A stretch of DNA of 25,182 nt from Actinomycetota bacterium (GTDB taxonomy: Bacteria; Actinomycetota; Thermoleophilia; UBA2241), in assembly GCA_012719015.1 (NCBI GenBank), contig JAAYBE010000275.1:1-25182 (forward strand). Direction: 5' to 3'. A program made the translations under genes and the position numbers. Positions 2,856-25,182 of this stretch are shown here, in pieces (position 1 is the first letter of the stretch; every line of letters begins with the position of its first letter). The notes beneath the pieces are model-generated. The model searched no databases. It had not been told where the DNA came from and was given only the letters and a program-made list of their open reading frames with translations.

Positions 2856-2869
2856 GGGAAGGCTGGCCG

Positions 2870-3118
2870 GTGGCCGGCACTGAATCTGCGCCGGAGCTCA
2901 CCCTTCGCGGCGCCGCGCGGAGCCTTGGCGATGACGCAGGACGACTGCAGGTCACAGCCGTCGCCCAGGACCACGTTGACGGCGACGCGCCGCATCGGGT
3001 CGTCGTGTGGAGCAGGGACAGACGAGGCCATGCGGGAATCCGACAGAGTCGGGCGGTGAGGGTCGTCGGCGCGGCGGGACCTGGGGCGCCCTCAGGCGCG
3101 GATCCGGCAGCCCCCTGA
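2870..3118 (+). pseudogene. Possible small or decayed ORF resembling a bacterial Ig-like (DUF5011/HYR-type) module, 82 aa
   Basis: GTG preceded by GGGGAAGG. Translation VAGTESAPELTLRG...VTAVAQDHVDGDAPHRVVVWSRDRRGHAGIRQSRAVRVV echoes PxLTLxG, ATATDNVDGD and TVTxxDxAGN...RTVxVV. About 23 of 82 codons end in A/T, more than in flanking genes. Confidence 0.3.
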
Positions 3119-3131
3119 CCGCTCGCCCGCC

Positions 3132-4160: not shown

Positions 4161-4182
4161 GCCGCCCTCCGGCCGGTCGCGC

Positions 4183-5709: not shown

Positions 5710-5733
5710 GCTGTCCCTCCTCCCTTCAGTCCG

Positions 5734-6888: not shown

Positions 6889-7072
6889 TGTGTCTGCTCC
6901 CGACGATCCTCGTGGCAGGCCCTAGACTACCCTGTCGGAGGGCGCCCCGCGCTGGGTTGTTCGTCTAGAGCCGACCGGCCCGGGCGCCCCAGGAGCCGGC
7001 GGGCGGCCCGGCACGCCCGGCGCCGTCCCCTGCCGTCCGCCGCACCCGACGATCGGCCACGGCAACAAGTGC

Positions 7073-7086
7073 TGTCAGGTCTGACA
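7073..7086. promoter_or_regulatory. Perfect inverted repeat TGTCAG-GT-CTGACA, candidate operator in the DegT/Wzc divergent spacer
   Basis: 6-bp perfect arms that are relatively AT-rich for this spacer; a one-mismatch copy lies at 8929-8942. Confidence 0.4.
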
Positions 7087-7183
7087 ACGGTGGAGCGAGG
7101 GGGCCTGTCCTCCCGCCGCCCCGATGACCGCGACACGAGAACGGCCGGAGACGCCTCCCAGGACGCCGCGGCGCCACGGCGGC

Positions 7184-7189
7184 TATAAT
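7184..7189 (+). promoter_or_regulatory. Consensus -10 box TATAAT for the wzc-like gene
   Basis: Perfect TATAAT in very GC-rich DNA, 36 nt before TTG 7226, which has SD GGGGAGGG; no convincing -35. Confidence 0.6.
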
Positions 7190-7225
7190 CCCCGGACGAC
7201 TGCTCGCGAGGGGAGGGCGAACGCG

Positions 7226-8839: not shown

Positions 8840-8928
8840 CGCGGGGCCGACGGGATCCCCGTACGGACCCTCCGCCCCACCTCCTGCGCACACCGCCGGA
8901 CGGCCTGCGACGACGCGGCCACCCGTGT

Positions 8929-8942
8929 TGTCATCGCTGACG
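8929..8942. promoter_or_regulatory. Imperfect copy TGTCA-TCGC-TGACG of the 7073 palindrome, upstream of the beta-helix gene
   Basis: Same TGTCA-N4-TGAC spacing as 7073-7086 with one mismatch; lies 22 nt upstream of a weak -10-like AACAAT (8965-8970). Confidence 0.3.
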
Positions 8943-8973
8943 ACAGATAAGCGTCCAGGTCCTCAACAATCGT

Positions 8974-9127
8974 CTCTGCGCGCCGATTCCACCCTCTGGA
9001 GAGCAGCGCGAGCTGCTCGTTCCACCGCCATGGAGTCTCCGGCGGGTCGCGTCGCTGCGGCAGAGGCCTCGCGCGGTCGTCGTCAGCCTGACTGTGACCC
9101 TCCGCTCCCTGCTCCGGAGGGATCACG
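8974..9127 (+). promoter_or_regulatory. Candidate structured 5' leader (cis-regulatory RNA) with GNRA-capped hairpin and SD-sequestering hairpin
   Basis: GAGCAGC-GCGA-GCTGCTC (9001-9018) is nested in TGGA/TCCA and ATTCCA/TGGAGT stems. GTGACCCTCCG (9094-9104) pairs with CGGAGGGATCAC (9115-9126), which contains the SD. Confidence 0.4.
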
Positions 9128-11218: not shown

Positions 11219-11223
11219 GCGCC

Positions 11224-11244
11224 GCGGCCGGCAGGCGCGGCCGC
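11224..11244. terminator. GC-rich hairpin between convergent genes (possible terminator, no U-tract)
   Basis: GCGGCCG-N7-CGGCCGC starts 5 nt after the beta-helix stop. Chance occurrence is plausible at this GC content. Confidence 0.25.
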
Positions 11245-11303
11245 ACCGACGCAGCGGACCCGGGCCCGGCGCCCGGCGTGCAGGACGCGCCCGCCGCGCG
11301 GCG

Positions 11304-11852
11304 TCAGAGCTCGTCTGACGCCGCCCCGGCTCCGTCGATCGGCCTGGCCGGATTCCCTGCGTAGCGGCCGCCGGACGCCAGGTCGCGGGTGACGACGCTG
11401 CCCGCGCCCACCACGCAGCGGTCGCCGATGGTCACCCCGGGCAGGACGATTGAGAAGGCGCCGATCCAGCACTCCCGGCCCACGACGATGGGCCGCCCCG
11501 TCGGCGGCGTCCCCACTTCGTGATGGGACGTGATGAAGCGGACGCCCATGCCGACGAGGCACCCGGGGCCGATCGCGATGGAGCCCTTGTTGTCGAAGAA
11601 GCAGTCCCAGTTGACGAACGTGCCGGCGCCGATCTCGACCTGCACCCCGCCGAAGAAGCAGCGGGGGCTGATCACCACGCGCCGCCCCAGACGCAGACCC
11701 GCCCTCCTGAGCACCCTCGTGCGCAGCGCGTCCGACACCAGCGGCGAGGCGACCGGGCCGTTGAGCAGGAGGTCCCTGCGGAAGTGGTCGCCCACGCCGA
11801 TCTGCCTGAGCGCCTTCGATCCGAGCACCTTCAGCGGGAGCCGTTCGGCCAT
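11304..11852 (-). CDS. Hexapeptide-repeat acyltransferase (maltose O-acetyltransferase-like, probable polysaccharide O-acetyltransferase)
   Basis: 182 aa; left-handed beta-helix repeats VEIGAGTFVN, IAIGPGCLVG, GRPIVVGRECWIG and VLPGVTIGDRCVVGAGSVVTRD, ending in YAGNPARPI. Confidence 0.93.
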   Translation of the reverse strand: MAERLPLKVLGSKALRQIGVGDHFRRDLLLNGPVASPLVSDALRTRVLRRAGLRLGRRVVISPRCFFGGVQVEIGAGTFVNWDCFFDNKGSIAIGPGCLVGMGVRFITSHHEVGTPPTGRPIVVGRECWIGAFSIVLPGVTIGDRCVVGAGSVVTRDLASGGRYAGNPARPIDGAGAASDEL

Positions 11853-11858
11853 GGATGC

Positions 11859-11864
11859 ATCCTA
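11859..11864 (-). promoter_or_regulatory. Candidate -10 (TAGGAT) placed for a leaderless transcript of the acyltransferase
   Basis: TAGGAT, 6 nt, then ATG 11852; no SD upstream. It overlaps the palindrome GGATGCATCC (11853-11862). Confidence 0.45.
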
Positions 11865-11947
11865 CAACCGCGGGGCTGCCGGAGCCGGATCCGCATCACG
11901 TCACGAGCGTCGGCCTCCGAGTCTCCGCCGGCCCGCCTCGCGGCGCC

Positions 11948-13498
11948 TCACGGCGCCGCATCCCGACGCGAGCCCCTGCCCGCCAGGCCGTCGAGCAGCC
12001 GTACGATCCTCGCCACGACGCCGCTCCCCTGGCCTCCATGGCCGGCCGCGTCGAGCCGCCCGCGGATCTCCCGCCAGACGAGTCCTCCGCGTGCTCTGGT
12101 GACGGTCCAGAGCAGGTACGCCGCGGCCGCCGTCATCTGCACGGCGAGTATCGGCGGCGCACCCAGGCCGAGCCGACCCAGGCCGACGTGCAGACCGTAG
12201 AGCCCCGCCCCGGTGACGACCCCGGCGACGACACCCACGCCGTGGGCGCGCGCGATGTCGACGACGCCGAGGCTGAGCAGTCGCCGCATCACCGGCACGT
12301 AGGCCAGGTTCGTGAGCAGCTCGGAGACGGCGAACGCCCCCGCGATGCCCACGATGCCGAACCGGGCCAGCGCGACGAGGAGCAGCGCCAGCCAGCCGAG
12401 ACGGCAGACCGAGATCAGGATCTTGACGTTCAGGGTCGCCGTCGCCTCACAGAGCATGGCCCCGAAGTGCGTCAGCAGGGAGAGCGGCGCCGCCAGCGAG
12501 AGCAGGGCGAGAGCCGGGACGGCCGCGCTCCACTGCGGCCCCAGCACCGTGGCGATGACCTCGTGCGCGGCCCCGGCGACGCCCCAGGCGACGGGGACGA
12601 TGACGGCGGCCACCACCGTGAGGGTCGCCAGATAAAGCGAGCGCAACCGCTCGCGCTCGAACTGGATGCGGCTGTACCCGGGCAGCAACACCCGGGAGAG
12701 GCTCGTCACCATGAGCTGCAGGGGGACGGTGGCCAGACTGGTCGCGCGCGTGTACAGACCGGTCGCCCGCGGTCCCAGGTAATGACCCGCCCACAACGTG
12801 TCGAGGTTGGTGCCGGCGAACTCGGCGATGCCGATGAGAGAGACCCGAGCACCGAACGAGTAGATCGCCTTGAACGACCGCGCACTCAACCCGAGCCCGA
12901 CGTCCGCCCGGCACAGGAGCAGGTAGGCGGTGGCCAGGAGGGTGGCCTGCCCCAGGGACGCCGTCACGAGGCTCCAGACGCCGAACCCCGCGTAGGCCAG
13001 TCCGAGCCCGAGTGCCGCGTAGCCGAGCAGATACGAGCCGATCTCCGTGAGCGCGATCGGACGGAAGGCGAAGCGGCGCCGCAGCAGGCCGTGCGTGGTG
13101 GCCGTGAAACCGCCGATCACCAGCGTGAGCGACATCACGCGCGTCACGGGCACGATGCCGGGCGTATGCGGGAAGAGCGCCCCCGCCAGGGGTGCGAGGA
13201 CGACGAAGAGAACGCAGAGGCCCACGCCGATGAGCGCGGCGGAGGTGAACGCGGTGCGCACGTCACGCGCGTCCAGCTCCGGCTTCTGGACCACCGCTTG
13301 TCCGGCGCCGGCCTGGGCGAAGTACTGTGCGAAGCGCAGCAGCACCAGGGCCATCGCGACCACCCCGAACTCGCTCGGAGTGAGCACCCGGGCGAGGATC
13401 GCGGTGACGGAGAGCTGCAACGCGAAGACGACCACCGTGGAGAGATAGCTCCACTTGAGGCCGTGGATGGTCTCGGCCGTGAGGTTACTGCTTCGCAT
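11948..13498 (-). CDS. wzx: Wzx-type polysaccharide repeat-unit flippase (PST/MOP family, WzxC-like)
   Basis: 516 aa polytopic protein; GLKWS...ILARVLTPSEFG...G...AVVQ, LLRRRFAFRPIA, GFGVWSLV and GLYTRA motifs. Confidence 0.93.
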   Translation of the reverse strand: MRSSNLTAETIHGLKWSYLSTVVVFALQLSVTAILARVLTPSEFGVVAMALVLLRFAQYFAQAGAGQAVVQKPELDARDVRTAFTSAALIGVGLCVLFVVLAPLAGALFPHTPGIVPVTRVMSLTLVIGGFTATTHGLLRRRFAFRPIALTEIGSYLLGYAALGLGLAYAGFGVWSLVTASLGQATLLATAYLLLCRADVGLGLSARSFKAIYSFGARVSLIGIAEFAGTNLDTLWAGHYLGPRATGLYTRATSLATVPLQLMVTSLSRVLLPGYSRIQFERERLRSLYLATLTVVAAVIVPVAWGVAGAAHEVIATVLGPQWSAAVPALALLSLAAPLSLLTHFGAMLCEATATLNVKILISVCRLGWLALLLVALARFGIVGIAGAFAVSELLTNLAYVPVMRRLLSLGVVDIARAHGVGVVAGVVTGAGLYGLHVGLGRLGLGAPPILAVQMTAAAAYLLWTVTRARGGLVWREIRGRLDAAGHGGQGSGVVARIVRLLDGLAGRGSRRDAAP

Positions 13499-13595
13499 CG
13501 CGACGCCGTGTCCGGGTCGGGCCGCCGATCAGCACCTCGTGACGTCGTCTCACGACGACGCGGCCCCACCACGGCCCGGCATATGGCGACCCGTA

Positions 13596-13601
13596 TATCA
13601 T
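13596..13601 (+). promoter_or_regulatory. Candidate -10 element (TATCAT) for the GT2/Wzy unit
   Basis: Lies in the only AT-rich patch (GTATATCATG) of the wzx/GT2 divergent spacer. Confidence 0.35.
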
Positions 13602-13732
13602 GTCCGGGTGAACCCTAGCGGACTTCACGCCCCGACGCCCGCCCCCGTGGCGGTGCACGGGACTGCGGACGACGGCGATCGAGGCTGGGGCCGCGGCGAC
13701 GGAGCCGCTCACGCGCGAGGAGGCAGGGGATC

Positions 13733-14614
13733 GTGGGTGTCTGGACGGTGATCGCTCACTACGGCGACGTGTACGCCACACGTGAGGCGGTCAACGCCGT
13801 CCTCGCCGGCTCTGAGCGCCCGGAGACCGTCCTGCTGGTCGACAATCAGGGCGACCTGCCCGCGTTCGACGATGAGGCCGTGCAGGTGGAGCGCCCGGGC
13901 GACAACATCGGCTTCGCCGGCGCCTGCGTGCTGGGCATGCGCCGGGCGCTGGCCGCCGGCGCCGACTGGGTGTGGTTCGTCAACAACGACGCAGAGCCCG
14001 GCCCGGAGTGTCTGGAGCGCCTTCTGGACGCCGGGGCGGCCGCGCCCCGCGCCGGGCTCCTGAGCCCCGCGATCGAGCACCGCGACAGGGCGGGCTTCTG
14101 GTACGCGGGCGGCGACCTCGACCGGCGGCGCCTCCAGGTCGAGCATCGCGCGCGGCCGGAGCGGGACACGCCGCACGACGTGCCCTTCGTCACCGGATGC
14201 GCGTGGCTGGCGCGGCGCGCCTTCATCGAGCAGTGCGGCCCCCTGGACGCGGGCCTCTTCATGTACTTCGAGGACGTCGACTGGAGCCTCCGTGCGCAGG
14301 CGGCCGGCTGGCGCACGATGCTCGTGCCCGCGGCGCGCGTCGCCCACGACGCGGCGTACGCACACGGCCGACGCGTCTTCACGCCGACGGCCATCTACTA
14401 CATGACGCGCAACCGCCTGCTCCTGGCGCGGCGCTGGGGCTCCCCCGGGGCCGTGTTCGCGGCCGCTGTGACATGGGGCGGTCGCCAACTCGTCAAGTGC
14501 CGCTCCGCCGCGGCGGCCGCGAAGGTCGTCCTGGCGCTCTCGGCCGGTGTCCGGGACGGCGTGGCCGGCCGCCGAGGTCCGGCGCGCCCCGGGCTCGCCC
14601 GCAAGCTGCGATGA
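13733..14614 (+). CDS. Glycosyltransferase family 2
   Basis: 293 aa; LVDN, NIGFAGA, WVWFVNNDA, VTGCAWL, FMYFEDVDWS and YYMTRNRLL motifs of WbbL/RfbF-like GT2 proteins. Confidence 0.93.
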   Translation: MGVWTVIAHYGDVYATREAVNAVLAGSERPETVLLVDNQGDLPAFDDEAVQVERPGDNIGFAGACVLGMRRALAAGADWVWFVNNDAEPGPECLERLLDAGAAAPRAGLLSPAIEHRDRAGFWYAGGDLDRRRLQVEHRARPERDTPHDVPFVTGCAWLARRAFIEQCGPLDAGLFMYFEDVDWSLRAQAAGWRTMLVPAARVAHDAAYAHGRRVFTPTAIYYMTRNRLLLARRWGSPGAVFAAAVTWGGRQLVKCRSAAAAAKVVLALSAGVRDGVAGRRGPARPGLARKLR

Positions 14615-16044
14615 GGAGCGATGCCGCACCCCGGTACCCGGACCGCTGGTTCTGGGTCGGCATCGTCCTGGCTTACGCGGCGATCGTGGCGGCGGCCCTC
14701 TGGACGCCGGTGCTCGGCGCCGTGCTCGCCGCCCTGGTCGGAGTCGGCGCCCTCCTCGCGACCATCGTGGGCACGCGCCGCGGGACGCTGTTCCTCGGCG
14801 CCCTGCTCATCGCGGTCGACCTCGTGCTGCCGTCCGACGTGGCCCTGCGGCTCCGCATCCCCGTCGGGGGCGGCGGGATCTACATCCAGGACCTGATCCT
14901 CGGCGTGCTCCTGGTCAGCGTCGTCCTGGGAGCGACCTCCGGGAGACGCCCCGGCGCCGTGACGTCCCCCGTGCGGCTCCCCATCCTCCTCTTCCTGTGC
15001 TGGACGGCCGTGGCCGCCTTCATCGGCTCTCAGAACGGCAACCAGGTCAAGTTCATCCTTCAGGACGCCCGCTCGCTCGTCTATTACGCCGTCTTCTTCT
15101 TCGCCGTCACGTTCCTCACTGACCGCCGTGAGCTCCTCGGGTTCCTGCGCCTCCTGGCCGTCTGTACGGTCGTGGCGTTCGCGCTCGGCGCCGTGTACGC
15201 GGCACTGGGCCGGGGAGGAGCCGTCGAGTTCGTGGAGGCCGGCGTGAGCCGGTTCCCGGCCGCCGACTTCATCTTCCTCATGGCGGCCATGATGCTCGCG
15301 GCGTTCGTCGTGGTCTGGCCCGCCGGGCGCCGCCGGCCGGCCTGGCTGTGGCTCCTGCTCCTTGTGGCGCTCCTCGGACTGGTGCTCTCGTTCGTGCGCG
15401 GCAACTGGGTCGCGTTCGCGGCCGGGCTCGCCTACCTGATGGTGGTCCTCCACGTGCGGGAGCGCATGCGGCTGGTCGTCGGCGGACTGGCGGTCGCGCT
15501 GATCCTCGGCGTCGGCCTGGCCGCCGTGAGCCCGGCCGTGTTCTCCTCGGTGGTCTCGAGAGCACTCGCGGTCAGGGCGATGGACGACCCCAACGTCCAG
15601 TACCGCCTCATAGAGAACCAGGAGGTCGGCCGGCAGATCGCGGAGAAGCCGGTCCTCGGCAACGGCCTGGGCGCCGAGTTCCTCTTCGACTGGTCGCGCT
15701 ACGGCGTGGCTCCCTTCCTCAAGACGTACATCCACAACAACTACTACTGGTTCCTGCAGCGGCTGGGGATCATCGGGCTGGGTCTGTTCGTCTGGATGAC
15801 GATCGCCTTCCTGGTTCCCTGGATGAGCGTCCGGAGCACGCTGCCCCGCGACGACCCCTGGCTCTCGGGACTGGTCTTCGGGGGGCGTGCGTTGTTCGTC
15901 GCTTTGCTGGTCAATTCGATCACCTCGCCGCGCTTCAACACCATGGACAGCGTGGCGGTGCTCGCCCTCCTGATGGGGATGTCCGAGGCGGCCCTGGCCC
16001 TCCTGCGCGACCGCGTCGCGCGCGGGCCGGGGGCGCCCGCCTGA
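14611..16044 (+). CDS. O-antigen ligase / Wzy polymerase family membrane protein
   Basis: ATG 14611 overlaps the GT2 stop (ATGA). 477 aa polytopic protein with LSFVRGNW, YRLIE, KPVLGNGLG and HNNY...GIIGL motifs of Wzy_C. Confidence 0.88.
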   Translation: MRSDAAPRYPDRWFWVGIVLAYAAIVAAALWTPVLGAVLAALVGVGALLATIVGTRRGTLFLGALLIAVDLVLPSDVALRLRIPVGGGGIYIQDLILGVLLVSVVLGATSGRRPGAVTSPVRLPILLFLCWTAVAAFIGSQNGNQVKFILQDARSLVYYAVFFFAVTFLTDRRELLGFLRLLAVCTVVAFALGAVYAALGRGGAVEFVEAGVSRFPAADFIFLMAAMMLAAFVVVWPAGRRRPAWLWLLLLVALLGLVLSFVRGNWVAFAAGLAYLMVVLHVRERMRLVVGGLAVALILGVGLAAVSPAVFSSVVSRALAVRAMDDPNVQYRLIENQEVGRQIAEKPVLGNGLGAEFLFDWSRYGVAPFLKTYIHNNYYWFLQRLGIIGLGLFVWMTIAFLVPWMSVRSTLPRDDPWLSGLVFGGRALFVALLVNSITSPRFNTMDSVAVLALLMGMSEAALALLRDRVARGPGAPA

Positions 16045-16052
16045 GCACCGCG

Positions 16053-17105
16053 TCAGCGCCCCGGCCGGCCGGCGTCCCGGAAGGCGGACTCGACCATGGC
16101 CGCCAGGGCGCCGGCCCTCTCCTCCCAGTCGGCGCGGCGGATGCCCCGCAGCTCGCCGATCTCGCGCTCGTACGCGGCGTGACCGGCGACCATCCTCCGC
16201 ACGCCGGCGAGGATCCCCTCGGCCGTGCCGTCCACGAACACCGCGCCCTGGGAGAAGTAACCCCTCAGGGTAGGCCAGTCGGAGGTGATGACGGGCCGGC
16301 CGAGGGAGAGCGCTTCGTTGGCGCCGCACTGGAACGTGTGGTCCCGGGTGGTCAGCGCCATCACCGCATGACTCGACTTGAGCAGGCCGTAGTACCGGCG
16401 CTCAGGCAGGAAGCCCGTGAACACGACGTTGGCGGGCGCCCCCTCCACGAGGCCGGCCGGGGCCCGCGCGGGATCGCCGGTCACATGGAAGCGCACGGAG
16501 GGCTCATGGACGGCCGCGGCGAGGACCTCCTCAACGGGCTCGTCGGCCGCGAACCGGTTCACGACGGCGACGTTGAAGCCCTCGGGCAACGGGTGATCCT
16601 CCCACTCGTAGCTGCCGATGGGGTCCTTCAGCACCAGGACCCGACCCCCGCGTCCTTCGACCAGACGCTGGAAGTGCTCGTCGTGGACCAGCGTCACCAG
16701 CGCGTCCCGGGTGGCCGGCCGGTGCAGCCATGAAGGCTCGAGCCAGACCCGGCGCTGCATGGCGTCGCTGTGCGCGTCGACGATGTAGCGACCTCCGGCG
16801 ATCCGGCAGCACCAGCGCACCAGGAGGACGCTGTGGCTGGGCGGGCTCTGCACGAAGACGACCTCCGGTCGTGTGCGCCACAGCAGGCCGAGGGTCCAGC
16901 CCGCCTGCAGCAGGTAGCGCAAGGGGGCGCTCCGGCTCGTCGAGCCCCACGGCGCCCCCAGGTGCCGCACCTGGGCGATGCCGAGCGCCCGCGCCAGCTG
17001 GCGGGTGCGGCTGCTGCCGTGGCTCGCGGGAGTCCACGTCAGGAACAGCGTCCTCCGGCGCCGGAAGACGGTCACGTCCGCCGCCCCGTGGTCTGCCCCG
17101 GTCAC
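16053..17105 (-). CDS. GT-B fold glycosyltransferase (family 4-like)
   Basis: 350 aa; FLTW...RTRQLA, RPEVVFVQSPP, DAHS, NVVFTGFLP, CGANEALSLGRPVITSD and GAVFVD. GTG start approximate. Confidence 0.85.
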   Translation of the reverse strand: MTGADHGAADVTVFRRRRTLFLTWTPASHGSSRTRQLARALGIAQVRHLGAPWGSTSRSAPLRYLLQAGWTLGLLWRTRPEVVFVQSPPSHSVLLVRWCCRIAGGRYIVDAHSDAMQRRVWLEPSWLHRPATRDALVTLVHDEHFQRLVEGRGGRVLVLKDPIGSYEWEDHPLPEGFNVAVVNRFAADEPVEEVLAAAVHEPSVRFHVTGDPARAPAGLVEGAPANVVFTGFLPERRYYGLLKSSHAVMALTTRDHTFQCGANEALSLGRPVITSDWPTLRGYFSQGAVFVDGTAEGILAGVRRMVAGHAAYEREIGELRGIRRADWEERAGALAAMVESAFRDAGRPGR

Positions 17106-17152
17106 AGCATCCTCTCCTCCGCCTCACGAGCCCCGGTGCGCACCGCGCAGTG

Positions 17153-17158
17153 TACTAT
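17153..17158 (+). promoter_or_regulatory. Candidate -10 TACTAT (+), overlapping a minus-strand TACACT (17154-17149): back-to-back promoters
   Basis: Two overlapping TAnnnT hexamers in the 88-bp divergent spacer between GT (17105) and GNAT (17194). Confidence 0.4.
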
Positions 17159-17193
17159 CGTACCCGCAGCGGCCAAGCCGCGGAGCCGCCCGT

Positions 17194-18213
17194 ATGGAAG
17201 TCCTCGAGTCGCCGATAGACGACCCTCGCTGGCGGGAGCTGGCGGACACGCACCCGGACGCGGGCCCCTTCCACCTGCCCGCCTGGGCCTCGCTGATCGC
17301 CGACTGCTACCGCTTCCGGGCGTTCGCGCTGATTGTCCGGGAGGGCGACGAGGTGCTCGCCGGACTGCCGGTGGTGGAGGTGGGCGCGCGGCGCGCCCGG
17401 CGATGGGTGTCCCTGCCGTTCACGGATTCGTGCGCGCCGCTCATCCGCGCCGGCGTCGCGGCCGACGAGGTGTTCGCCGCCATCGACGCGCACGTGCTGG
17501 CCGCTCCGGTGCGCGGGTTGGAGGTACGCGCCGCGCTCCCCGCCGGCGCCGCCCGCCATCCCGTGGCGGCCGGCTACATCCACACGCTCGCCCTGCCCGA
17601 AGACCCCTCGCAGCTCCGCCCCAACAAGGGACACCGCAACTACCGCAACCAGGCGGTGCGCAAAGGCGTCCGGGTGGTGCGCGGCCGCAGCCCGGCGGAG
17701 CTCGCCACCTTCTACCGGCTGCACACGCTCACCCGACGACGTCACGGAGTGCCGGTGCAGCCGCGCCGCTTCTTCGACCTGCTGCAGCAGCGGCTGATCG
17801 CGCCGGGACAGGGCTTCGTGGCGACGGCGTCGGCCGACGGCGAGACGCTGGCGGCGGGCGTCTACCTGGTGCACAACAGGGTGCTGGTGGCCAAGTACCT
17901 GGGCTCAGACCCGAGCCTGCCGGACAAGCGGGCCGGCTACCTCATCGACTGGGACTCCATGGTCAACGGATGCGCCGAGGGCTATCACACGCTCGACCTC
18001 GGACGCAGCGACCCCGACGCCGACGGACTGCGCCTCTACAAATCCTCGTGGGGCGCGGCGGAGGCTCCGCTGACGTACACGCACATCTCGCGCACGCGGC
18101 CGCCGGCCGACCGCGGGTCCGGGGGCGGCGGCATCGCCGCCGCGGTCATCCGTCGGGCGCCCGTCTGGGTCTGCCGCGCGCTGGGCGAGCTGTTCTATCG
18201 CCGGGCCGCCTGA
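17194..18213 (+). CDS. GNAT superfamily protein, FemAB-related (Acetyltransf_6-like)
   Basis: ATG 17194, 339 aa; GPFHLPAW, WVSLPFTD, RNQAVRKGV, HGVPVQPRRFF, LDLGRS and GLRLYKSSWGA, typical of duplicated-GNAT FemAB-like proteins in polysaccharide loci. Confidence 0.85.
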   Translation: MEVLESPIDDPRWRELADTHPDAGPFHLPAWASLIADCYRFRAFALIVREGDEVLAGLPVVEVGARRARRWVSLPFTDSCAPLIRAGVAADEVFAAIDAHVLAAPVRGLEVRAALPAGAARHPVAAGYIHTLALPEDPSQLRPNKGHRNYRNQAVRKGVRVVRGRSPAELATFYRLHTLTRRRHGVPVQPRRFFDLLQQRLIAPGQGFVATASADGETLAAGVYLVHNRVLVAKYLGSDPSLPDKRAGYLIDWDSMVNGCAEGYHTLDLGRSDPDADGLRLYKSSWGAAEAPLTYTHISRTRPPADRGSGGGGIAAAVIRRAPVWVCRALGELFYRRAA

Positions 18214-19382
18214 GAGCCCGCGGCGCGGGAAGCGGGCCGCGGCGCGGCGTCCCGTGGCGGACCGGCCGCCGGAGGACCCTCCCACCGCTCGCGCACCCAG
18301 CCGGCGACCTCGCGCGGCAGGGCGTGCCAGGACTGCGGGAGGCGCACCAGCTCGTCGAGGAACTCCTCGTACAGCGCCGTCCTGCCGCGGCACAGGTAGT
18401 CCGGATGCGTGTTCACGAGGGCCATGCCGCGGTGGGCGGTGAGGAAGTCGAGCTTCTCGAGCCAGATCCGCGGACCCGTCTCGCCCAGCGTCTCGATGAG
18501 CGTGTGGTCCTGGGGCAGCGTGTACGGCAGCTCGACGAACCGCCCCATCACGTAGGGCCACACGGTCATGACCCCGCCGGGCATCGGCTCGAAGGGGTCG
18601 GTGTCGAAGAACGAGGAGTCCCACTCGACCGCGAGATCCTGCATCCAGGACGGCTCGCGGTGGGTCATCGGCGACCGGAACCCGACCGATCCCCACTCCC
18701 GCAGGCGCGCGTTCATCGCCGGCAACCGGCGGTGGAAGCGGGCGCGCGACTCGAAGAGCCGTCCGTCGTGGCGCCACCCGTGCAGCGCGACCTCGAACCC
18801 CGCGGCACGGAGCTCATGCAGGAGCGAGTCCGGCACGCGGTACGTGCCGCCCACGAAGGAGACCGACGAGCTCAGGCCACGGGTCTGCTCCAGGGCGAGC
18901 AGGTCGAGCAGACGGGAGAGGCCGAAAGGCCCTTCGACGTCGTGGGTGAGCACCACGGCGCAGGCACGGTCGTCCGGCCACCACGGCGCGGCGCGCTCCG
19001 TCCCGGACGCCTCGAGTGCGGCGCGCACCTGCTCGGCGAAGACGACGAACCTCTCCTCCACCGGCCAGCGCAACGGCCCGGCCGCGGCCTCGCGGCTGAC
19101 CACACGGCGGCGCAGCAGCGCCCTGGCCCCGGCGGGGAGCAACGGCCGCAGGCGGTAGTACAGCCGCCGTGCCGGCGGGAGGACGAAGTGGTCCGGTCCG
19201 AACTGCCCCTCGAGCAGCAGCGCCTCCCCGAGTCCGCCCAGGCCCTCCCCGGCCAACGCCCGCCGGGCCGCCTCCGGCAGCACGTCGGCCGCCGCACGAA
19301 CCGCGTCCTCGACGGCGTCGCGCGGGAACGTCCGCAGCCCCAGCAGCCGCACGATCGCGTCGTCGGCCAGCACCCCGCGCAT
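18195..19382 (-). CDS. Polysaccharide deacetylase-like protein (NodB/CE4-type) with N-terminal extension
   Basis: LYYRLRPLLP, RWPVE, WWPDDRACAVVLTHDVE, FEVALHGWRHDG, GFRSP, WDSS, ELPYTLPQDH and VNTHPDY. ATG 19382 has SD GGGGTGAGG; the start is approximate. The 3' end overlaps the GNAT gene by 19 nt. Confidence 0.8.
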   Translation of the reverse strand: MRGVLADDAIVRLLGLRTFPRDAVEDAVRAAADVLPEAARRALAGEGLGGLGEALLLEGQFGPDHFVLPPARRLYYRLRPLLPAGARALLRRRVVSREAAAGPLRWPVEERFVVFAEQVRAALEASGTERAAPWWPDDRACAVVLTHDVEGPFGLSRLLDLLALEQTRGLSSSVSFVGGTYRVPDSLLHELRAAGFEVALHGWRHDGRLFESRARFHRRLPAMNARLREWGSVGFRSPMTHREPSWMQDLAVEWDSSFFDTDPFEPMPGGVMTVWPYVMGRFVELPYTLPQDHTLIETLGETGPRIWLEKLDFLTAHRGMALVNTHPDYLCRGRTALYEEFLDELVRLPQSWHALPREVAGWVRERWEGPPAAGPPRDAAPRPASRAAGSQAARR

Positions 19383-19483
19383 CCCGAGCCTCACCCCCGA
19401 TCCCGTGGTCGTCGCCGGACCGGGCCGCGCCGTCACCGCGCCCGGTCGTGCGGACGAGCGTACCAGCACGACGACGATACGGG

Positions 19484-19489
19484 TAACAT
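19484..19489 (+). promoter_or_regulatory. Candidate -10 TAACAT for the GT4/FemX/DUF362 unit; a minus-strand TATCGT lies at 19479-19474
   Basis: TAnnnT hexamers on both strands in the divergent spacer 19383-19545. Confidence 0.3.
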
Positions 19490-19545
19490 GGAGGTTCCCG
19501 TCCACGACTCTGAGGCGGGGACGACGGACGACGGAAGGGGGCGGG

Positions 19546-20856
19546 ATGCGGTTCCTGGCGAGCAGGCGCGAGAGGACGGACCGACGCGCCGCGGCGCGTC
19601 CCCGGGCGCTGATCCTCGTCGAGAACGCCCCCGTGCCCGGCGACCGGCGCGTGACGGCCGAGGCCCTGTCGTTGCGGGCCAACGGCTACGACGTCAGCGT
19701 GATCTGCCCGGTCGCCGGGGACCAGCCGCTGCGCGAGGAGATGGACGGCGTGCTGGTGGCACGCTACCACCCCCACCAGCCGCCCTGCGTCTCGGGCGGC
19801 GCCCGCGAGCAGGTGACCGAGTACCTCGTGGCGCTGGCGAAGACCCTGCGCCTGATGGTGAGCCTGGCGCGGAGGCCCGGCTTCGACGTCATCCAGGCCT
19901 GCAACCCGCCCGACCTCTTCTTCCTGGTCAGCTGGCCGTTCAAGCTGGCCGGCAAGCGCTTCATCTTCGACCAGCACGACCTCTCCCCCGAGCTCTACGC
20001 GACGATCTTCGGCCGCGACTCGGGGCCGATCATGCGGGCGCTGCGCTGGACGGAGGCCCTCTCCTACCGGCTCGCCGACGCCGTGATCGCGACGAACGAG
20101 TCGTACCGCCGGATCGCCGAGACGCGCGGGAGGGTGGCGCCCGACCGTGCGTTCGTGGTGCGCAACGGGCCGCGCGAGGGCTGGCCGCTCCCGGTCGCGC
20201 CCGACCCGTCGCTCAAGCGCGGCCGTCCCCTGCTCGTGGTCTACATGGGAGTGATGGGGCACCAGGACGGTGTCGACCGGCTGCTCGACGCGGCGCACAT
20301 CCTGATCCGGGAGAGGGGCTTCCGCGACGCCACCTTCGCGCTCGTCGGAGAGGGCAGCGCGGAGCGGGACCTGTGGCGCCAGGCGCGCGAGCTGGGCATC
20401 GAGGACCACGTCCACTTCACCGGCTGGGTCGACGACGAGGACCTGCTCTCGCGCTATCTCGTGACGGCCGACGCCTGCGTCTGCCCGGAGCCGTCCAGTC
20501 CACTGAACGACCATTCGACCTTCATCAAGGTCATGGAGTACATGGCCTCGGGCACGCCGGTCGTCGCGTTCGACCTTCCGGAGACGCGGTTCTCCGCCGG
20601 CGACGCCGCGGTCTACGCCGCGCCGGGCGACATCGAGGGCTTCGCCGCGCGGCTCGAGGAGGTGCTCACCGACGGCGGGCTGCGCGCGGCCATGCAGGCC
20701 GAGGCCGCGCAGCGGATGCCCGGACTGCGCTGGGAGAGCCAGGTCCCGGCCCTGCTGGCGGCCTATCGCCGGGCGCTCGCGGGCCACCCCGCCGGACCCG
20801 CCCGCTCCGGGGAGTCCGGCGGGTCCGAGCCTCCCCGAGAGGAGGCTCCGCCGTGA
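19546..20856 (+). CDS. Glycosyltransferase family 4 (WbuB-like)
   Basis: ATG 19546, 436 aa; ILVEN.PVP.DRRV..EA, DVIQACNPPD, FDQHDLSPELY, YMGVMGHQDGVD and KVMEYMASGTPVVAFDL. Confidence 0.92.
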   Translation: MRFLASRRERTDRRAAARPRALILVENAPVPGDRRVTAEALSLRANGYDVSVICPVAGDQPLREEMDGVLVARYHPHQPPCVSGGAREQVTEYLVALAKTLRLMVSLARRPGFDVIQACNPPDLFFLVSWPFKLAGKRFIFDQHDLSPELYATIFGRDSGPIMRALRWTEALSYRLADAVIATNESYRRIAETRGRVAPDRAFVVRNGPREGWPLPVAPDPSLKRGRPLLVVYMGVMGHQDGVDRLLDAAHILIRERGFRDATFALVGEGSAERDLWRQARELGIEDHVHFTGWVDDEDLLSRYLVTADACVCPEPSSPLNDHSTFIKVMEYMASGTPVVAFDLPETRFSAGDAAVYAAPGDIEGFAARLEEVLTDGGLRAAMQAEAAQRMPGLRWESQVPALLAAYRRALAGHPAGPARSGESGGSEPPREEAPP

Positions 20857-21965
20857 GGGTCCGCGAGCTGGACGTCTCCCGCGCCGCGGACTGGAACGAC
20901 CTCGTCGCCGCCGAAGGGTCGTTCGCCCTGACCCAGGCGCGTGAATGGGGCGCGTTCAAGGCGCGCCTCGGCTGGCGCGTCCGCCGGATCGGCGTCGAGG
21001 ACGGAGACGGCCGGCTCGTCGCCGGCGCGCAGCTCCTCATCAAGCCGCTGCCCCTGGGTCTCACGCTCGCCTACGTGCCGCGAGGCCCGGTGGGCCGCTG
21101 GCACGAGCCGGAGGTGGCCACCCTCCTACTGGCGCGACTCGAGCGCTGCGCGCAGGCGGAGGGCGCCGTGTTCCTCAAGCTCGAACCGGCGGTCGCCGTC
21201 GGAGCACCGGTGCTCGACCTGCTCGCCAGACACGGCTTCCGCGAGAGCCGGGTCACCAACCAGCCCCGGACGACCATGCTGCTGGATGTCTCCGGCGCGC
21301 CGGAGGACGTCCTGGGGCGGATGCGCAAGAAGACCCGTCAGTACGTCCGTCGCGCCGAGCGCGAGGGCATCACGACCCGGCTCGGCGCGACGGACGACCT
21401 GCCCGCCTTCCACGACCTGATGCGGAAGACGGCGCGGCGAGAGGGCTTCGCCCCGCGGAGCCTCGCCTACCACCAGGCCGAGTGGGACGTCTTCTCCGCC
21501 GGCGGCCTGTGCGCCCTGCTCCTCGCCCACCACGAGGGACGGCTGATCGCCGTCCGGACGGTCCACCGCTTCGGCCGGCACGCCGCCGAGTTCCACGGCG
21601 GGTCGGTCACGACGCCCGGTCTCCATCCCAACCACCTGCTCGTATGGCGGGCCGTCGAGTGGGCCAGGGAGCACGGCTGCTCCACCTACGACCTCTGGGG
21701 GATCCCCGACGAGGTGGAGCCCGCCGCGGACGGCGGGCGGCCGGAGGCGCCGGAGCGGCGCGACGGCCTCTGGGGGGTCTACCGGTTCAAGCGAGGGTTC
21801 GGCGCCGACGTCGTCAGATACGCCGGCGCCTACGACCTCGTGCTCAAGCCGCGGGCGTACTCCGTGCTCACCGCGGCCATGATCGACAGATCGCTCTGGG
21901 AGCGAGCGGCCGCCCGGCTCGACCGGGTCGCGAGCTCCACCATCTTCAAAGGGGCTGCACCATGA
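20853..21965 (+). CDS. FemABX-family aminoacyl-tRNA-dependent transferase (lipid II:glycine glycyltransferase FemX-like)
   Basis: GTG overlaps the GT4 stop (GTGA), 370 aa. TQAREWGAFK, LAYVPRGP, VFLKLEP, QPRTTMLLD, KKTRQYVRRAE, PNHLLVWRA, YDLWGIP and GVYRFKRGFG. Confidence 0.9.
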   Translation: MRVRELDVSRAADWNDLVAAEGSFALTQAREWGAFKARLGWRVRRIGVEDGDGRLVAGAQLLIKPLPLGLTLAYVPRGPVGRWHEPEVATLLLARLERCAQAEGAVFLKLEPAVAVGAPVLDLLARHGFRESRVTNQPRTTMLLDVSGAPEDVLGRMRKKTRQYVRRAEREGITTRLGATDDLPAFHDLMRKTARREGFAPRSLAYHQAEWDVFSAGGLCALLLAHHEGRLIAVRTVHRFGRHAAEFHGGSVTTPGLHPNHLLVWRAVEWAREHGCSTYDLWGIPDEVEPAADGGRPEAPERRDGLWGVYRFKRGFGADVVRYAGAYDLVLKPRAYSVLTAAMIDRSLWERAAARLDRVASSTIFKGAAP

Positions 21966-24715
21966 TCTCGATCGTCATCGACCCGGACCTGCGCTACCCG
22001 GACCCGGCGGACCACTTCTCCCCCGACGAACGCTTCCCGGAATACCGTCTCGGGCACATCTCCGCGCGTCCCAACCCCGTTTACCGGGCGGTGCGGAACC
22101 TGTTCGTGCAGGCCGGGCTGGACGCCGCTCACCTGGGCACGGCCGACTGGAACCCGCTGGGCGAGTACGTCAGGCCGGGCAGCCGCGTCTTCCTCCTCTG
22201 CAACTTCATGCAGGAGCGTCGGGCGGACGAGTCCCGGGAGGACTTCTTCTCGCGCTGCTCGCACGGGTCGGTGATCCGGGCGCTGGCCGACTACGTGCTG
22301 ATCGCCGCCGGCGACACGGGGCACGTGAGCATCGGTAACGCACCGATACAGTTCTGCGACTGGGAGGCCGTGCTGCGCGACACGGAGGCCCGCGAGGTGC
22401 TGGACTTCTACGCCTCGGCCGGCGCGCCCGTCGCGGCCCGCGACCTGCGTCTCAAGGTGACGGCGGCCACGCGCCTCGGGGCGATCCGCAGCGTCGAGCG
22501 GCGCGACGAGACGGAGGGCGTGCACGTGCGCCTGGACGGCGACAGCCTGTTCGCCGGGCAGGACGCCCAGCGTCCGCGCTACCGCGTGATGAACTACGAC
22601 CCGCGACGGACGCAGCGGTTCCACGAGGGCGGACGCCACGAGTACGTGATCCACCGCGAGATCCTCGAGTCGGACGTGATCGTCAGCGCCGTGAAGCTCA
22701 AGACGCACGAGAAGGTGGGCATCACCTGCGGCATCAAGGGCATGGTGGGCACCGTGGCCCACAAGGACTCGCTGCCGCACCACCGCTACGGCCCCCCCGA
22801 CCGCGGCGGCGACGAATACCCGTCGGAGGACGCGGCGTTCGCACGGCTGGCGACCGGCGTGCACGAACTGGTGCAGCGCACCACACCCGACAGCCGCACC
22901 GGCAGCGCCCTGCGCGTGGGGTACAAGGTCCTGCGTCGCGCCGTCCGCAGCCGCACTCCGGTCGTCGAGGGCGCGTGGCACGGCAACGACACCACCTGGC
23001 GCATGGCCACGGACGTGGCCCGCATCGCCGTCCACGCCGACGCAGAGGGCGTCATGCACGAGACCCCGCAGCGCCGCGTCGTCGTGCTCACCGACGGGGT
23101 GATCGGCGGAGAGGGCGACGGGCCGTACATGTCCACTGCGGTCCACAGCGGGATCCTCGCCCTCGCCGACGACCTCGCCGCCGCCGACCACGCGAACGCT
23201 CTCCTGATGGGCTTCGACCCGGATCGCATCCCCCTCGTGCGCGAAGCGCCGCGCCTCGAGACGTATCCGCTCACGGACGGCGACCCGCGCCGGGCCGAGG
23301 TGACGCTGAACGGACGGGCCATGCCGATGACCGAGTTCGGGCGACTCGAGCGCACGCCCTACGAGCCTGAGACCAACTGGCGCGCCGTGCTCGGCCGGGA
23401 CGCCGTGCCGATGCCTGACGGGCCGGACGCGCCGGCCCACGGGCCGCGGGCCGCGAGCGAGTCGCGTCGGCCGGCTCAGCCCGCGCCGGCCGTGGTCGTC
23501 CCGGCCGACCGGCCCGCCGCGCTCGGCATCGCACGCTCGCTCGGCTCGCGCGGCGTCACCGTCTACGGCGTCGACTCCGACCTCCTCGCCCCGGCCATGG
23601 CGTCGCGCCACGTGACCCCGGTCCGGCTGCCCCGCGGCGACGCCTCCGACGAGACGCGTCTCCGCGCGCTGCTCGACCTCGGGCGAAGGATCGGCCGCCG
23701 CGCCGTCCTCTTCCCCGTCAGCGACTCGGCCGCGCTGCTCTGCTCGCGCCACCGGGACACGCTGCGCGAGCACTACGACTTCGTCATGCCGGAGGCCGAT
23801 GCGCTCGACCGCCTGCTCAGCAAGGACGGGCTGCATGAGCTCGCCGAAGAGCACGGCATCCCGGCGCCGCGCATGTTCCCGGTGGCGAACCGTGAGGAGG
23901 CCGAGACCATCGCCGACCGACTCCCCTACCCGGTGATCATCAAGCCGGTGTTCAGCCCGTCCTGGCAGAACCCGGAGGTCAGAGCCCTGCTGCGCACCAC
24001 CGCCCTGGGCGGCGGACCCAAGGTCGTGCTCTGCGGGAACGCGGCCGAGCTGCTCGCCGCCCACGGGAAGATCGCCGCCCACGACCCGCGCATGATCTTC
24101 GAGGAGGTCATCCCCGGGGAGGATCCCAGCCTCCTCTACCACTGCTTCTACCTGGACCGGGACTCACGCCCCCTGGCCACGTTCGCCGGACGCAAGCTGC
24201 GCCTGCTGCCGGTGGGCTTCGGATCGGCCTCCTTCGTACAGAGCGTCCACGATCCCGAGCTGGAGCGACTCAGTCTCGACCTGCTCGCAAAGATCCGCTA
24301 CCAAGGCCTGGGCGGAGTGGAGTTCAAGCGTGACGCGCGCGACGGACGCCTGAAGCTGATCGAGTTCAACGCGCGTTACGGCATGTGGGACTCGCTCGGC
24401 GTGCGCTGCGGCGTCGACATCCCGTGGGCCGCCTACCGGGACGCGTTGGGCGAGCCCGTCGAGCCCCGGCACCACTACCGCACCGGCGTCAAATGGGTCG
24501 ACCTGCAGCGCGACGCGCGCGCCTTCCTCCAGTACCGCTCCGCAGGCCGGCTCGGCCCCGCCGGATGGCTCCGCTCGCTGCTGGGCGAGAAGGACTGGGC
24601 CTACTTCGACCGCCGCGACTGGCGCCCGGCGGTGCTGGCGGCGGCGGAGCAGGCGCGGGCGTTGAGGAGACTGGCGAAGGACGGGGGAAGGAAGGTCGGG
24701 CGCAGTCAGTCGTGA
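21962..24715 (+). CDS. Two-domain protein: N-terminal DUF362-like domain fused to a D-aspartate-ligase-like ATP-grasp domain (917 aa)
   Basis: ATG overlaps the FemX-like stop (ATGA). DUF362-type WNPLG, SDVIVSAVKLKTHEKVGITCGIKGMVG and D.A..D..NALLMGFDP.RIP. ATP-grasp ALGIARSLG, LFPVSD, YPVIIKP, EEVIPG, GRKLR and GVEFKRD...LIEFNAR. Confidence 0.8.
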   Translation: MISIVIDPDLRYPDPADHFSPDERFPEYRLGHISARPNPVYRAVRNLFVQAGLDAAHLGTADWNPLGEYVRPGSRVFLLCNFMQERRADESREDFFSRCSHGSVIRALADYVLIAAGDTGHVSIGNAPIQFCDWEAVLRDTEAREVLDFYASAGAPVAARDLRLKVTAATRLGAIRSVERRDETEGVHVRLDGDSLFAGQDAQRPRYRVMNYDPRRTQRFHEGGRHEYVIHREILESDVIVSAVKLKTHEKVGITCGIKGMVGTVAHKDSLPHHRYGPPDRGGDEYPSEDAAFARLATGVHELVQRTTPDSRTGSALRVGYKVLRRAVRSRTPVVEGAWHGNDTTWRMATDVARIAVHADAEGVMHETPQRRVVVLTDGVIGGEGDGPYMSTAVHSGILALADDLAAADHANALLMGFDPDRIPLVREAPRLETYPLTDGDPRRAEVTLNGRAMPMTEFGRLERTPYEPETNWRAVLGRDAVPMPDGPDAPAHGPRAASESRRPAQPAPAVVVPADRPAALGIARSLGSRGVTVYGVDSDLLAPAMASRHVTPVRLPRGDASDETRLRALLDLGRRIGRRAVLFPVSDSAALLCSRHRDTLREHYDFVMPEADALDRLLSKDGLHELAEEHGIPAPRMFPVANREEAETIADRLPYPVIIKPVFSPSWQNPEVRALLRTTALGGGPKVVLCGNAAELLAAHGKIAAHDPRMIFEEVIPGEDPSLLYHCFYLDRDSRPLATFAGRKLRLLPVGFGSASFVQSVHDPELERLSLDLLAKIRYQGLGGVEFKRDARDGRLKLIEFNARYGMWDSLGVRCGVDIPWAAYRDALGEPVEPRHHYRTGVKWVDLQRDARAFLQYRSAGRLGPAGWLRSLLGEKDWAYFDRRDWRPAVLAAAEQARALRRLAKDGGRKVGRSQS

Positions 24716-24872
24716 GATGACCGTGACCGTCGCGAGAGAACCACTCGGCGGTATCCGGATGCACGCCAGGTGTGGCATCATCCCCTGCCATGGCCATTCG
24801 TGCGGACGCCTGGACGCGGGGCACGACGTGTCCCGGCAGACCACTGTCACAAGCTCACTCGGGAGGCATTCC

Positions 24873-25181
24873 ATGAGCTGTCAGATTCGAAGGCGGCGCT
24901 CCGTCGACGCGATCGTCACAGGCTTGACCACAGCCCTTTTTGTCGTCGCCGCCCTGATCAGCACCCTCGTGGGAGCGACTCCCGCAGCCGCGGCCGTCGA
25001 CCCGTCGCCGCCGGTCTCCCCCACCAAACTCATCTTCATCCACCACTCCACCGGCGAGCTCTGGCTGGCCGACGACCACGGCGGCCTCGGGCTCGAGCTG
25101 CGCAGGAACGACTACTTCGTCAGCGACACCAACTACGGCTGGGGCCGTTCGCTGCCTCCCAGCCGCGGCGAGGACATCGGC
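24873..25181 (+). CDS. Secreted protein of unknown function, N-terminal part only (runs off the window; absent from the ORF track)
   Basis: SD GGGAGG then ATG 24873. MSCQIRRRRSVDAIVTGLTTALFVVAALISTLVGATPAAAA is a signal peptide, followed by KLIFIHHSTGELWL...GGLG...YFVSDTNYGWG. No stop before the window end; high GC3. Confidence 0.8.
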   Translation, partial: MSCQIRRRRSVDAIVTGLTTALFVVAALISTLVGATPAAAAVDPSPPVSPTKLIFIHHSTGELWLADDHGGLGLELRRNDYFVSDTNYGWGRSLPPSRGEDIG

Positions 25182-25182
25182 A

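Follow-up and report, generated by a model that had tools for sequence, protein, structure and literature searches.

The window studied here is a stretch of 25,182 nucleotides from an Actinomycetota bacterium (Thermoleophilia, UBA2241; assembly GCA_012719015.1, contig JAAYBE010000275.1, positions 1-25,182) with a G+C content of 72%. Near its end, a gene at 21962-24715 on the forward strand was found to encode a long DUF362 domain, a linker and an ATP-grasp ligase in one polypeptide of 917 amino acids, with a translation free of stop codons. The N-terminal half (21962-23392, amino acids 1-477) was recognized as a long DUF362 domain with a predicted LarA-superfamily fold from its match to Pfam family PF04015, its stand-alone homologues and a structural model. 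It contains a conserved core, KLKTH(249)...K(259)...H(273)H (22694-22780), which holds candidate equivalents of LarA His174, Lys184 and His200. A Pro/Ala-rich linker follows (23393-23482, amino acids ~478-507), which includes Met484 and was predicted with low confidence at the margin of each domain model. The C-terminal half, from 23483 to the end of the stop codon at 24715 (amino acids ~508-917), was identified as a putative ATP-grasp carboxylate-amine ligase from Pfam and NCBIfam matches, a structural model and invariant residues. The start codon, ATG at 21962, shares the sequence ATGA with the stop codon of the upstream gene, and the N-terminus MISIVIDPDL is common to the fusion protein and its homologues; the start was therefore considered sound.

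An earlier note, made from the sequence alone, had described this single frame of DUF362 and ATP-grasp parts, with KLKTH (residues 245-249) at 22694-22708 and an in-frame ATG at 23411, and both positions were found as given there. The note had also warned that the context of this ATG, ATGCCTGA, resembles a gene overlap, so that an indel near 23390-23410, introduced in assembly or sequencing, could have merged two coupled genes. Several observations argue against such an artefact. The G+C content at third codon positions (GC3) was 0.90-0.98 in a single phase over 21950-24650, and the phase was unchanged across the junction at 23300-23570. Between 97 and 100% of the sampled 31-mers of 22800-24000 were present in 20 public runs of bioreactor, sludge and digester metagenomes from 2016-2025. 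Logan contigs from four runs, each belonging to a different study (a 2016 bioreactor, sludge from 2023 and 2024 and a 2025 digester), spanning 21702-24780 or more, showed 0 differences and 0 gaps at the junction, including the stretch around 23380-23420 where the note had asked for assembly support. One of these four runs may be the source sample, and contigs conceal rare variants. A run labelled metatranscriptomic (X13) also covers the fusion gene; it was flagged as probably DNA and was not used for expression.

Fused homologues gave further support. The closest, P0002 (24 members), has 98% identity. A more distant one, P0003, has 901 amino acids and 67% identity over the full length and was found on one contig from the Joint Genome Institute and on one Logan contig. 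Its linker is 12 residues shorter, of unrelated sequence and without a Met at the junction. In the same-genus genome G022, amino acids 188-554 are encoded in one frame through the junction. Because independent contigs lack an indel, P0003 is fused and G022 is in frame through the junction, the DUF362-ATP-grasp fusion is a genuine single gene. The G022 copy as a whole (L014, G022:C1:132000-143808, at ~9094-11808; 75-82% identity) lies in three frames, with breaks near amino acids 187/188 and at amino acids 554-613, and runs off the end of its contig; either the gene is decaying or the long-read assembly has introduced indel errors into it.

A split counterpart was found in G041, a same-genus genome that is 98% complete in two contigs and in which gene order from the GT2 gene to the FemAB and ATP-grasp genes is syntenic with the window. 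In G041 the DUF362 (68% identity) and ATP-grasp (66% identity) parts are separate genes in one reading frame: a TGA ends the DUF362 gene, a GGAGG follows a few bases on, and a GTG ten codons past the stop starts the ATP-grasp gene. Since the two halves share a frame, what separates the split from the fused state is a stop codon with its start signals, located in the linker, rather than an indel. Separate genes of the kind warned of thus do exist in a relative; no indel was seen in the window, and the split arises from a TGA. Although the separate genes of G041 and the context of the ATG at 23411 would fit an artefact, that explanation is highly improbable. In an uncultured Leptolinea metagenome-assembled genome (MAG) of the Chloroflexota (L037), a FemAB gene, a DUF362 gene (55% identity) and an ATP-grasp gene of the same type are adjacent in different frames. 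The FemAB gene lies upstream in the fused forms (the window and L001, the P0003 contig, where it has 67% identity and overlaps the fusion gene) as well as in the split forms (G041 and L037). A pair of proteins that is fused in one lineage but encoded by separate genes in another shows a classic sign of partnership, and the two halves are very likely functional partners in glycan decoration.

Homologues were collected by an exhaustive search of 1.84 billion representatives, which gave 12183 matches at E <= 0.001. Matches to amino acids 1-477 were mostly stand-alone proteins of 470-500 amino acids, and those to amino acids ~505-900 were stand-alone ATP-grasp proteins of 400-430 amino acids. No representative among the best 150 covered both halves, and P0002 and P0003 were the only fused homologues found. 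Judged from these matches, the two halves are independent families. A full-length alignment (A2) was discarded, as MAFFT had spread half-length rows over the whole query, and the halves were folded separately.

The N-terminal half matched the Pfam DUF362 model (PF04015) over amino acids 208-411 with 57.7 bits, above the cut-off of 24, which places it in the family, and all 95 aligned relatives (alignment A1) were likewise DUF362 proteins. The model built on this alignment had a predicted local distance difference test score (pLDDT) of 96.1 and a predicted template modelling score of 0.95. In a Foldseek comparison with the Protein Data Bank (PDB), the top 19 matches all belonged to the LarA superfamily. 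VIA-align gave Z-scores of 15.1-16.6 over ~230 residues for 12 LarA-family entries, while the next fold reached a Z-score of 6.3. Among known enzymes, the closest counterparts are LarA of Lactiplantibacillus plantarum (PDB 5HUQ) and the malate racemase Mar2. Searches of the PDB by sequence, with the single sequence or a profile, gave nothing meaningful for the N-terminal half, and the relation to LarA became visible only by fold comparison. DUF362 and DUF2088 (LarA) are both members of Pfam clan CL0471 (PMC11770544). The relation to LarA that had been suggested in the earlier note was thereby supported by clan and by structure prediction, in which LarA-family structures were the only strong matches. 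On the model, the N-terminal half has a LarA-superfamily fold.

Conserved residues were compared by aligning A1 with 14 LarA homologues in hhalign. LarA numbering was anchored through a LarA homologue aligned to chain 8EZF_B, an R98A/R100A variant numbered as 5HUQ. His249 was paired with the catalytic His174 and Lys259 with the cofactor-tethering Lys184, with a spacing of ten residues in both families; Gly253 fell on Gly178 and Thr255 on Ser180. His273/His274 were placed at Asn199/His200, the latter a nickel ligand, only in a low-confidence extension of the alignment. A global alignment of the two families by hhalign was rejected as nonsense, and the local alignment was trusted only around H249-K259. 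K245, K247, H249, K259 and H273 were invariant in 95 of 95 family members. The DUF362 half appears to possess only one of two catalytic histidines, as do the recently solved single-histidine LarA homologues 9Q3J and 9Q3K, the top Foldseek match. Three of the 95 relatives weakly matched the NCBIfam model NPN_racem_MAR for nickel-dependent malate racemases, and P0022 alone among the relatives matched Pfam Lar_N (E 2.9e-5).

The DUF362 half also differs from LarA. Identity is 9-15%. It is ~190 residues longer, the added length lying in an extension at the N-terminus and in an inserted helical segment (amino acids 285-345), and it has further invariant residues of its own (D161, R163, S195, Y228, W339, N342, D351 and D378). 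Tentatively, this half may be a LarA-type isomerase. It is also possible, though somewhat unlikely, that it is not a hydride-transfer isomerase and that the LarA fold serves the ligase in another role, such as binding of a lipid- or nucleotide-linked substrate or, by means of the invariant polar residues, as an acceptor-side acyl transferase, hydrolase or lyase. The many invariant residues absent from LarA would fit such a role, but other residues kept without exception are exactly the three that hold the cofactor or catalyse in LarA, one of them, the match to His200, at low confidence.

The C-terminal half gave a model with a pLDDT of 92.9 and a complete ATP-grasp fold. The best solved matches in Foldseek were generic biotin carboxylases (E 4e-18, template modelling score ~0.6), which indicates the fold but neither the substrate nor the likeness to D-aspartate ligase suggested in the earlier note, and a profile search matched carbamoyl phosphate synthase (CPSase), biotin carboxylase and Ddl. 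Pfam placed the ATP-grasp models CPSase_L_D2 and ATPgrasp_Ter at amino acids 762-843, and the only NCBIfam models matched by the fusion protein were generic ATP-grasp models, well under their cut-offs. K621, K661, E801, N803 and R805 were invariant in 33 relatives of this half, and by sequence E801-x-N803-x-R805 reads as the usual ATP-grasp Glu-x-Asn-x-Arg motif for metal and acyl-phosphate binding. The three-domain fold, the Lys residues and this motif, which together define the ATP-grasp superfamily, were all found, and from fold and invariant residues the C-terminal half is predicted to be an intact ATP-grasp ligase. The family is named "carboxylate-amine ligase" in atlas clusters and is elsewhere fused to polysaccharide deacetylase or methyltransferase domains. 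PF14305, the TupA-like ATP-grasp family, matched neither the fusion protein (P0001) nor the 33 relatives. Stand-alone ATP-grasp paralogues of this half (30-39% identity) were observed in 21 of 24 same-genus genomes, frequently in tandem pairs such as those at G007:C3:87081-89437 and G003:C1:262391-264792, and the genome of the window has one on contig C58 (L006).

Long DUF362 proteins were then followed across phyla. With a single peptide pattern and one genome per species, relatives were found in at least 596 genomes. A locus survey returned 80 loci from Acidobacteriota, Verrucomicrobiota, Planctomycetota, Bacillota, Bacteroidota, Chloroflexota, Myxococcota and others. Using tblastn, a same-strand ligase gene was found within 450 nucleotides of the DUF362 gene in 44 of the 80 loci; 34 of these ligases were CapK/PaaK-like, nine TupA-like and one of the present type. 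Among the remaining loci, seven had an AMP-binding-like gene and five a RimK-like ATP-grasp gene close by. A carboxylate-activating ligase of some class thus lies beside or near the long DUF362 gene in at least 56 of the 80 loci. In L003 and L004 a CapK-like ligase gene follows a stand-alone DUF362 gene; the 438-amino acid gene after DUF362 in L003 had been considered as an ATP-grasp gene, which was rejected in favour of this CapK-like assignment. In G358 the gene immediately upstream of DUF362 encodes a TupA-like ATP-grasp protein, in a position between the Wzy and Wzx genes.

Independent fusions with other partners were found as well. Single-chain proteins of DUF362 and ATP-grasp, for which the earlier note had proposed a search, include P0023 and P0139 in addition to P0002 and P0003; in P0023 and P0139 a TupA-like ATP-grasp domain, of a family other than that in the window, is fused to the N-terminal side of a long DUF362 domain. 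Long DUF362 domains are also fused to GT4 glycosyltransferases (P0123, P0146 and P0008) and to a TOD1-like domain (P0150). A 1176-amino acid open reading frame (ORF) of a Verrucomicrobiota MAG (L049:7913-11443) has a C-terminal long DUF362 domain behind ~700 residues with a weak DUF7411 match, which may be another fusion partner. The proposal that the fusion offers a functional clue for DUF362 was upheld by the adjacency of the same two families in G041 and the Chloroflexota MAG and by the presence of long DUF362 beside, or fused to, ligases in most loci examined. A description of the pairing was not found in a full-text literature search for DUF362, and PMC11770544 uses DUF362 only as an outgroup of LarA.

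DUF362 stays constant while the class of the ligase varies among these loci. This is the pattern that would be expected of a common acceptor-side or substrate-presenting component, and it counts in favour of a non-isomerase role for the DUF362 half, as does the lack of linkage to lar genes. The characterised ATP-grasp and CapK-like glycan ligases, however, need no such helper. In the phylum of the window, long DUF362 was found in three of 401 genomes, a rarity that fits transfer together with glycan loci.

The fusion gene lies at the end of a Wzx/Wzy polysaccharide locus. It is preceded by a FemAB-family (aminoacyl-transferase-like) gene at 20880-21965 on the forward strand (Pfam FemAB, E 2.3e-42; start approximate), and the ATGA overlap of the two genes suggests that they are translationally coupled. 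The rest of the locus occupies 1078-20856 and was assigned from Pfam scans, with gene phases taken from the GC pattern. It contains, in order, GtrA, GT87, a GFO/IDH/MocA oxidoreductase, an initiating sugar transferase, a DegT aminotransferase, Wzz/BY-kinase, a secreted F5/8-beta-helix protein, a hexapeptide acyltransferase, the Wzx flippase, GT2, Wzy, GT1, a FemAB-like GNAT protein, a deacetylase-like ORF, GT4, FemAB and the fusion gene.

The presence of a FemAB gene next to an ATP-grasp ligase raises the alternative that FemAB, DUF362 and ATP-grasp form a module that builds a peptidoglycan interpeptide bridge and stands beside polysaccharide genes by chance. FemAB transferases and the ATP-grasp D-aspartate ligase are known to make peptidoglycan side chains, and a racemase-like partner would fit the supply of a D-amino acid. 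In Enterococcus faecium, cell-envelope synthesis involves Fem-type transferases together with an ATP-grasp D-aspartate ligase and an isomerase that provides the ligase with its substrate. Compared by description only, the present system differs from it in its Wzx/Wzy locus and in a partner with the LarA fold rather than the Asp/Glu racemase fold. The module is embedded among GT4, GT1, Wzy, GT2 and Wzx genes both in the window and in syntenic G041, and in L003, L004 and G358 long DUF362 likewise stands among Wzx/Wzy or glycosyltransferase genes. Furthermore, occurrence in so few genomes of the phylum is unlike a core cell-wall function. A role in peptidoglycan is therefore regarded as very unlikely.

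Some other genes of the window were noted. The secreted-looking protein encoded at 9128-11218 (+) has an F5/8 type C (galactose-binding) domain and a right-handed beta-helix, and may be a depolymerase or a modifying enzyme of the polymer. An ORF of 495 amino acids at 18195-19682 (-) has good codon bias and a faint polysaccharide-deacetylase match (E 0.004), and a deacetylase-like gene is similarly placed in the syntenic G041 locus (L035:12114-13286). The window ends at 25182, ~470 bases past the fusion gene. A partial ORF at 24717-25182 (+) begins two bases past the fusion stop codon and has a hydrophobic segment and weaker codon bias; it gave no Pfam match and did not resemble the genes that follow in L001 or G041. 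Public contigs likewise end near 24717-25182.

LarA-type catalysis depends on the nickel-pincer cofactor, and of the genes for it (larB, larC and larE), larC was followed in genomes with long DUF362. LarC was found in the genome of the window and in G022, G041 and G358, the other carriers of the phylum, as well as in 44 of 50 long-DUF362 genomes of other phyla. The base rate of LarC in three phyla is already 65-77% (88 of 121, 46 of 60 and 39 of 60 genomes; the first tally includes four unpublished genomes, G127, G165, G083 and G194, on which nothing else rests), and the 44 of 50 therefore says little. The genome of the window carries LarA-family proteins, two of them cut by contig ends and one a weak 480-amino acid candidate, and two LarC loci (G000, contigs C117, C275, C386, C426 and C364). 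Nickel-pincer cofactor synthesis is probably available in the host organism; the distribution of LarC neither supports nor refutes use of the cofactor by the DUF362 half. In an Alphaproteobacteria MAG (L111), a LarC homologue lies ~2.6 kb upstream of the DUF362 gene of a TupA-like ligase and DUF362 pair, the sole such locus of the 80.

Taken as a whole, the fusion protein is probably a bifunctional tailoring enzyme of a Wzx/Wzy exopolysaccharide pathway. The ATP-grasp half would activate a carboxylate as an acyl phosphate and join it to an amine on a lipid-linked repeat unit or on a substituent of it. The DUF362 half would perform the step just before or just after ligation on the same substrate, as an obligate neighbour step. 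Its most likely chemistry would be a LarA-style isomerisation, in which a hydride is transiently removed and a carbinol carbon is epimerised or racemised. The substrate could be an acidic sugar, with the carbinol next to the carboxylate-bearing carbon, or the (hydroxy) acid being attached. The fusion would merely tie together partners that act as separate proteins elsewhere.

The ligase half is read as an amide-forming polysaccharide tailoring enzyme because the characterised members of the partner classes, Cj1438C and VpsH, act on uronic acids. The C-terminal domain of Campylobacter jejuni Cj1438, a TupA-like ATP-grasp domain of the HS:2 capsule pathway, amidates the C6 carboxylate of a glucuronic acid within the nascent glycan (PMC11800379). 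Like the present protein, Cj1438 has an ATP-grasp ligase within a multidomain polysaccharide enzyme, and its family, PF14305, is fused or adjacent to long DUF362 in other lineages. It differs in being fused to a GT2 domain without a DUF362 partner, and the ligase half of the fusion protein belongs to another, COG3919-like ATP-grasp family. In Vibrio cholerae, the CapK-like enzyme VpsH attaches glycine, in an ATP-dependent reaction, to the amino-uronic acid in the lipid-linked disaccharide of Vibrio polysaccharide (VPS), and a proposed sugar-acid epimerisation by VpsJ precedes this ligation on the lipid-linked repeat unit (PMC13463779). Next to long DUF362, CapK-like ligases occur more often than any other class. 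The ligase in the window is of the ATP-grasp type and not adenylating, and the parallel between VpsJ and DUF362 is a functional analogy only. VpsJ had been considered as a DUF362 protein, which was rejected; its fold matches are alpha/alpha-barrel 2-epimerases (PMC13463779) and never LarA, and NCBIfam and name searches gave no link between VpsJ and DUF362.

A different assignment of the substrate, in line with the racemase-plus-ligase pairing of the earlier note, would make the DUF362 half a racemase of a small 2-hydroxy or amino acid in the cytoplasm. The ATP-grasp half would then attach the rare isomer to an amino sugar supplied by DegT, and the FemAB-type enzymes would add residues. LarA relatives do act on free 2-hydroxy acids (PMC11770544), the LarA-like His249, Lys259 and His273 are kept, the locus holds a DegT aminotransferase and two FemAB-like genes, and the logic of pairing a racemase with a ligase fits the fusion. 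The fusions of long DUF362 to GT4 and TOD1-like glycosyltransferases, on the other hand, fit action on a glycan intermediate better, and in Cj1438C and VpsH it is the carboxylate of the sugar itself, rather than that of a free acid, which is activated. Moreover, two-way racemisation normally needs His108 of LarA, for which no counterpart was found. Racemisation of a free acid is consequently judged unlikely.

A number of results weigh against the tailoring enzyme with LarA-type chemistry that is preferred here. The evidence consists of sequence, context and models. The hhalign match of the family to LarA is weak (P 0.008) and confident over ~57 residues only. The phosphate-binding Arg75 and the catalytic His108 of LarA have no conserved counterpart, the aligned positions being hydrophobic and the alignment of low confidence there, which also speaks for a non-isomerase role of the DUF362 half. 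The fusion protein had no match to Lar_N (PF09861) at E <= 0.01. Many short DUF362 proteins have 4Fe-4S ferredoxin domains, a hint of other chemistry in the wider family. The long DUF362 gene is found in polysaccharide loci beside ligases and not beside lar genes: LarC lay within 10 kb of it in one of the 80 loci, so that nickel-pincer genes are not linked to the family, and LarC was not seen in 6 of the 50 long-DUF362 genomes of other phyla, which may be incomplete. In ~24 of the 80 loci no ligase neighbour was found with the queries used. Finally, the separate folding of the halves yielded no interdomain interface.

DUF362 is a very large family without an assigned function. Long DUF362 proteins could represent a widespread new branch of nickel-pincer (or similar tethered-cofactor) enzymes that epimerise a sugar or sugar acid on lipid-linked glycans and hand it to an amide ligase, a proposal that is rather doubtful. 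If true, LarA-type chemistry would for the first time be placed in polysaccharide biosynthesis, and DUF362 would gain its first function. The window contributes an in-frame fusion with a third ligase family, fused and split orthologues in one genus and a conserved FemAB partner. Amide-decorated exopolysaccharides are relevant to the biofilm and floc properties of wastewater bacteria. In the fusion protein, two partners that are repeatedly found together in surface-polysaccharide loci across many phyla occur naturally as one chain, which turns the function of DUF362 into a question for the bench. Should LarA-like chemistry be borne out, the reach of nickel-pincer enzymology would widen from small hydroxy acids to the assembly of glycans.

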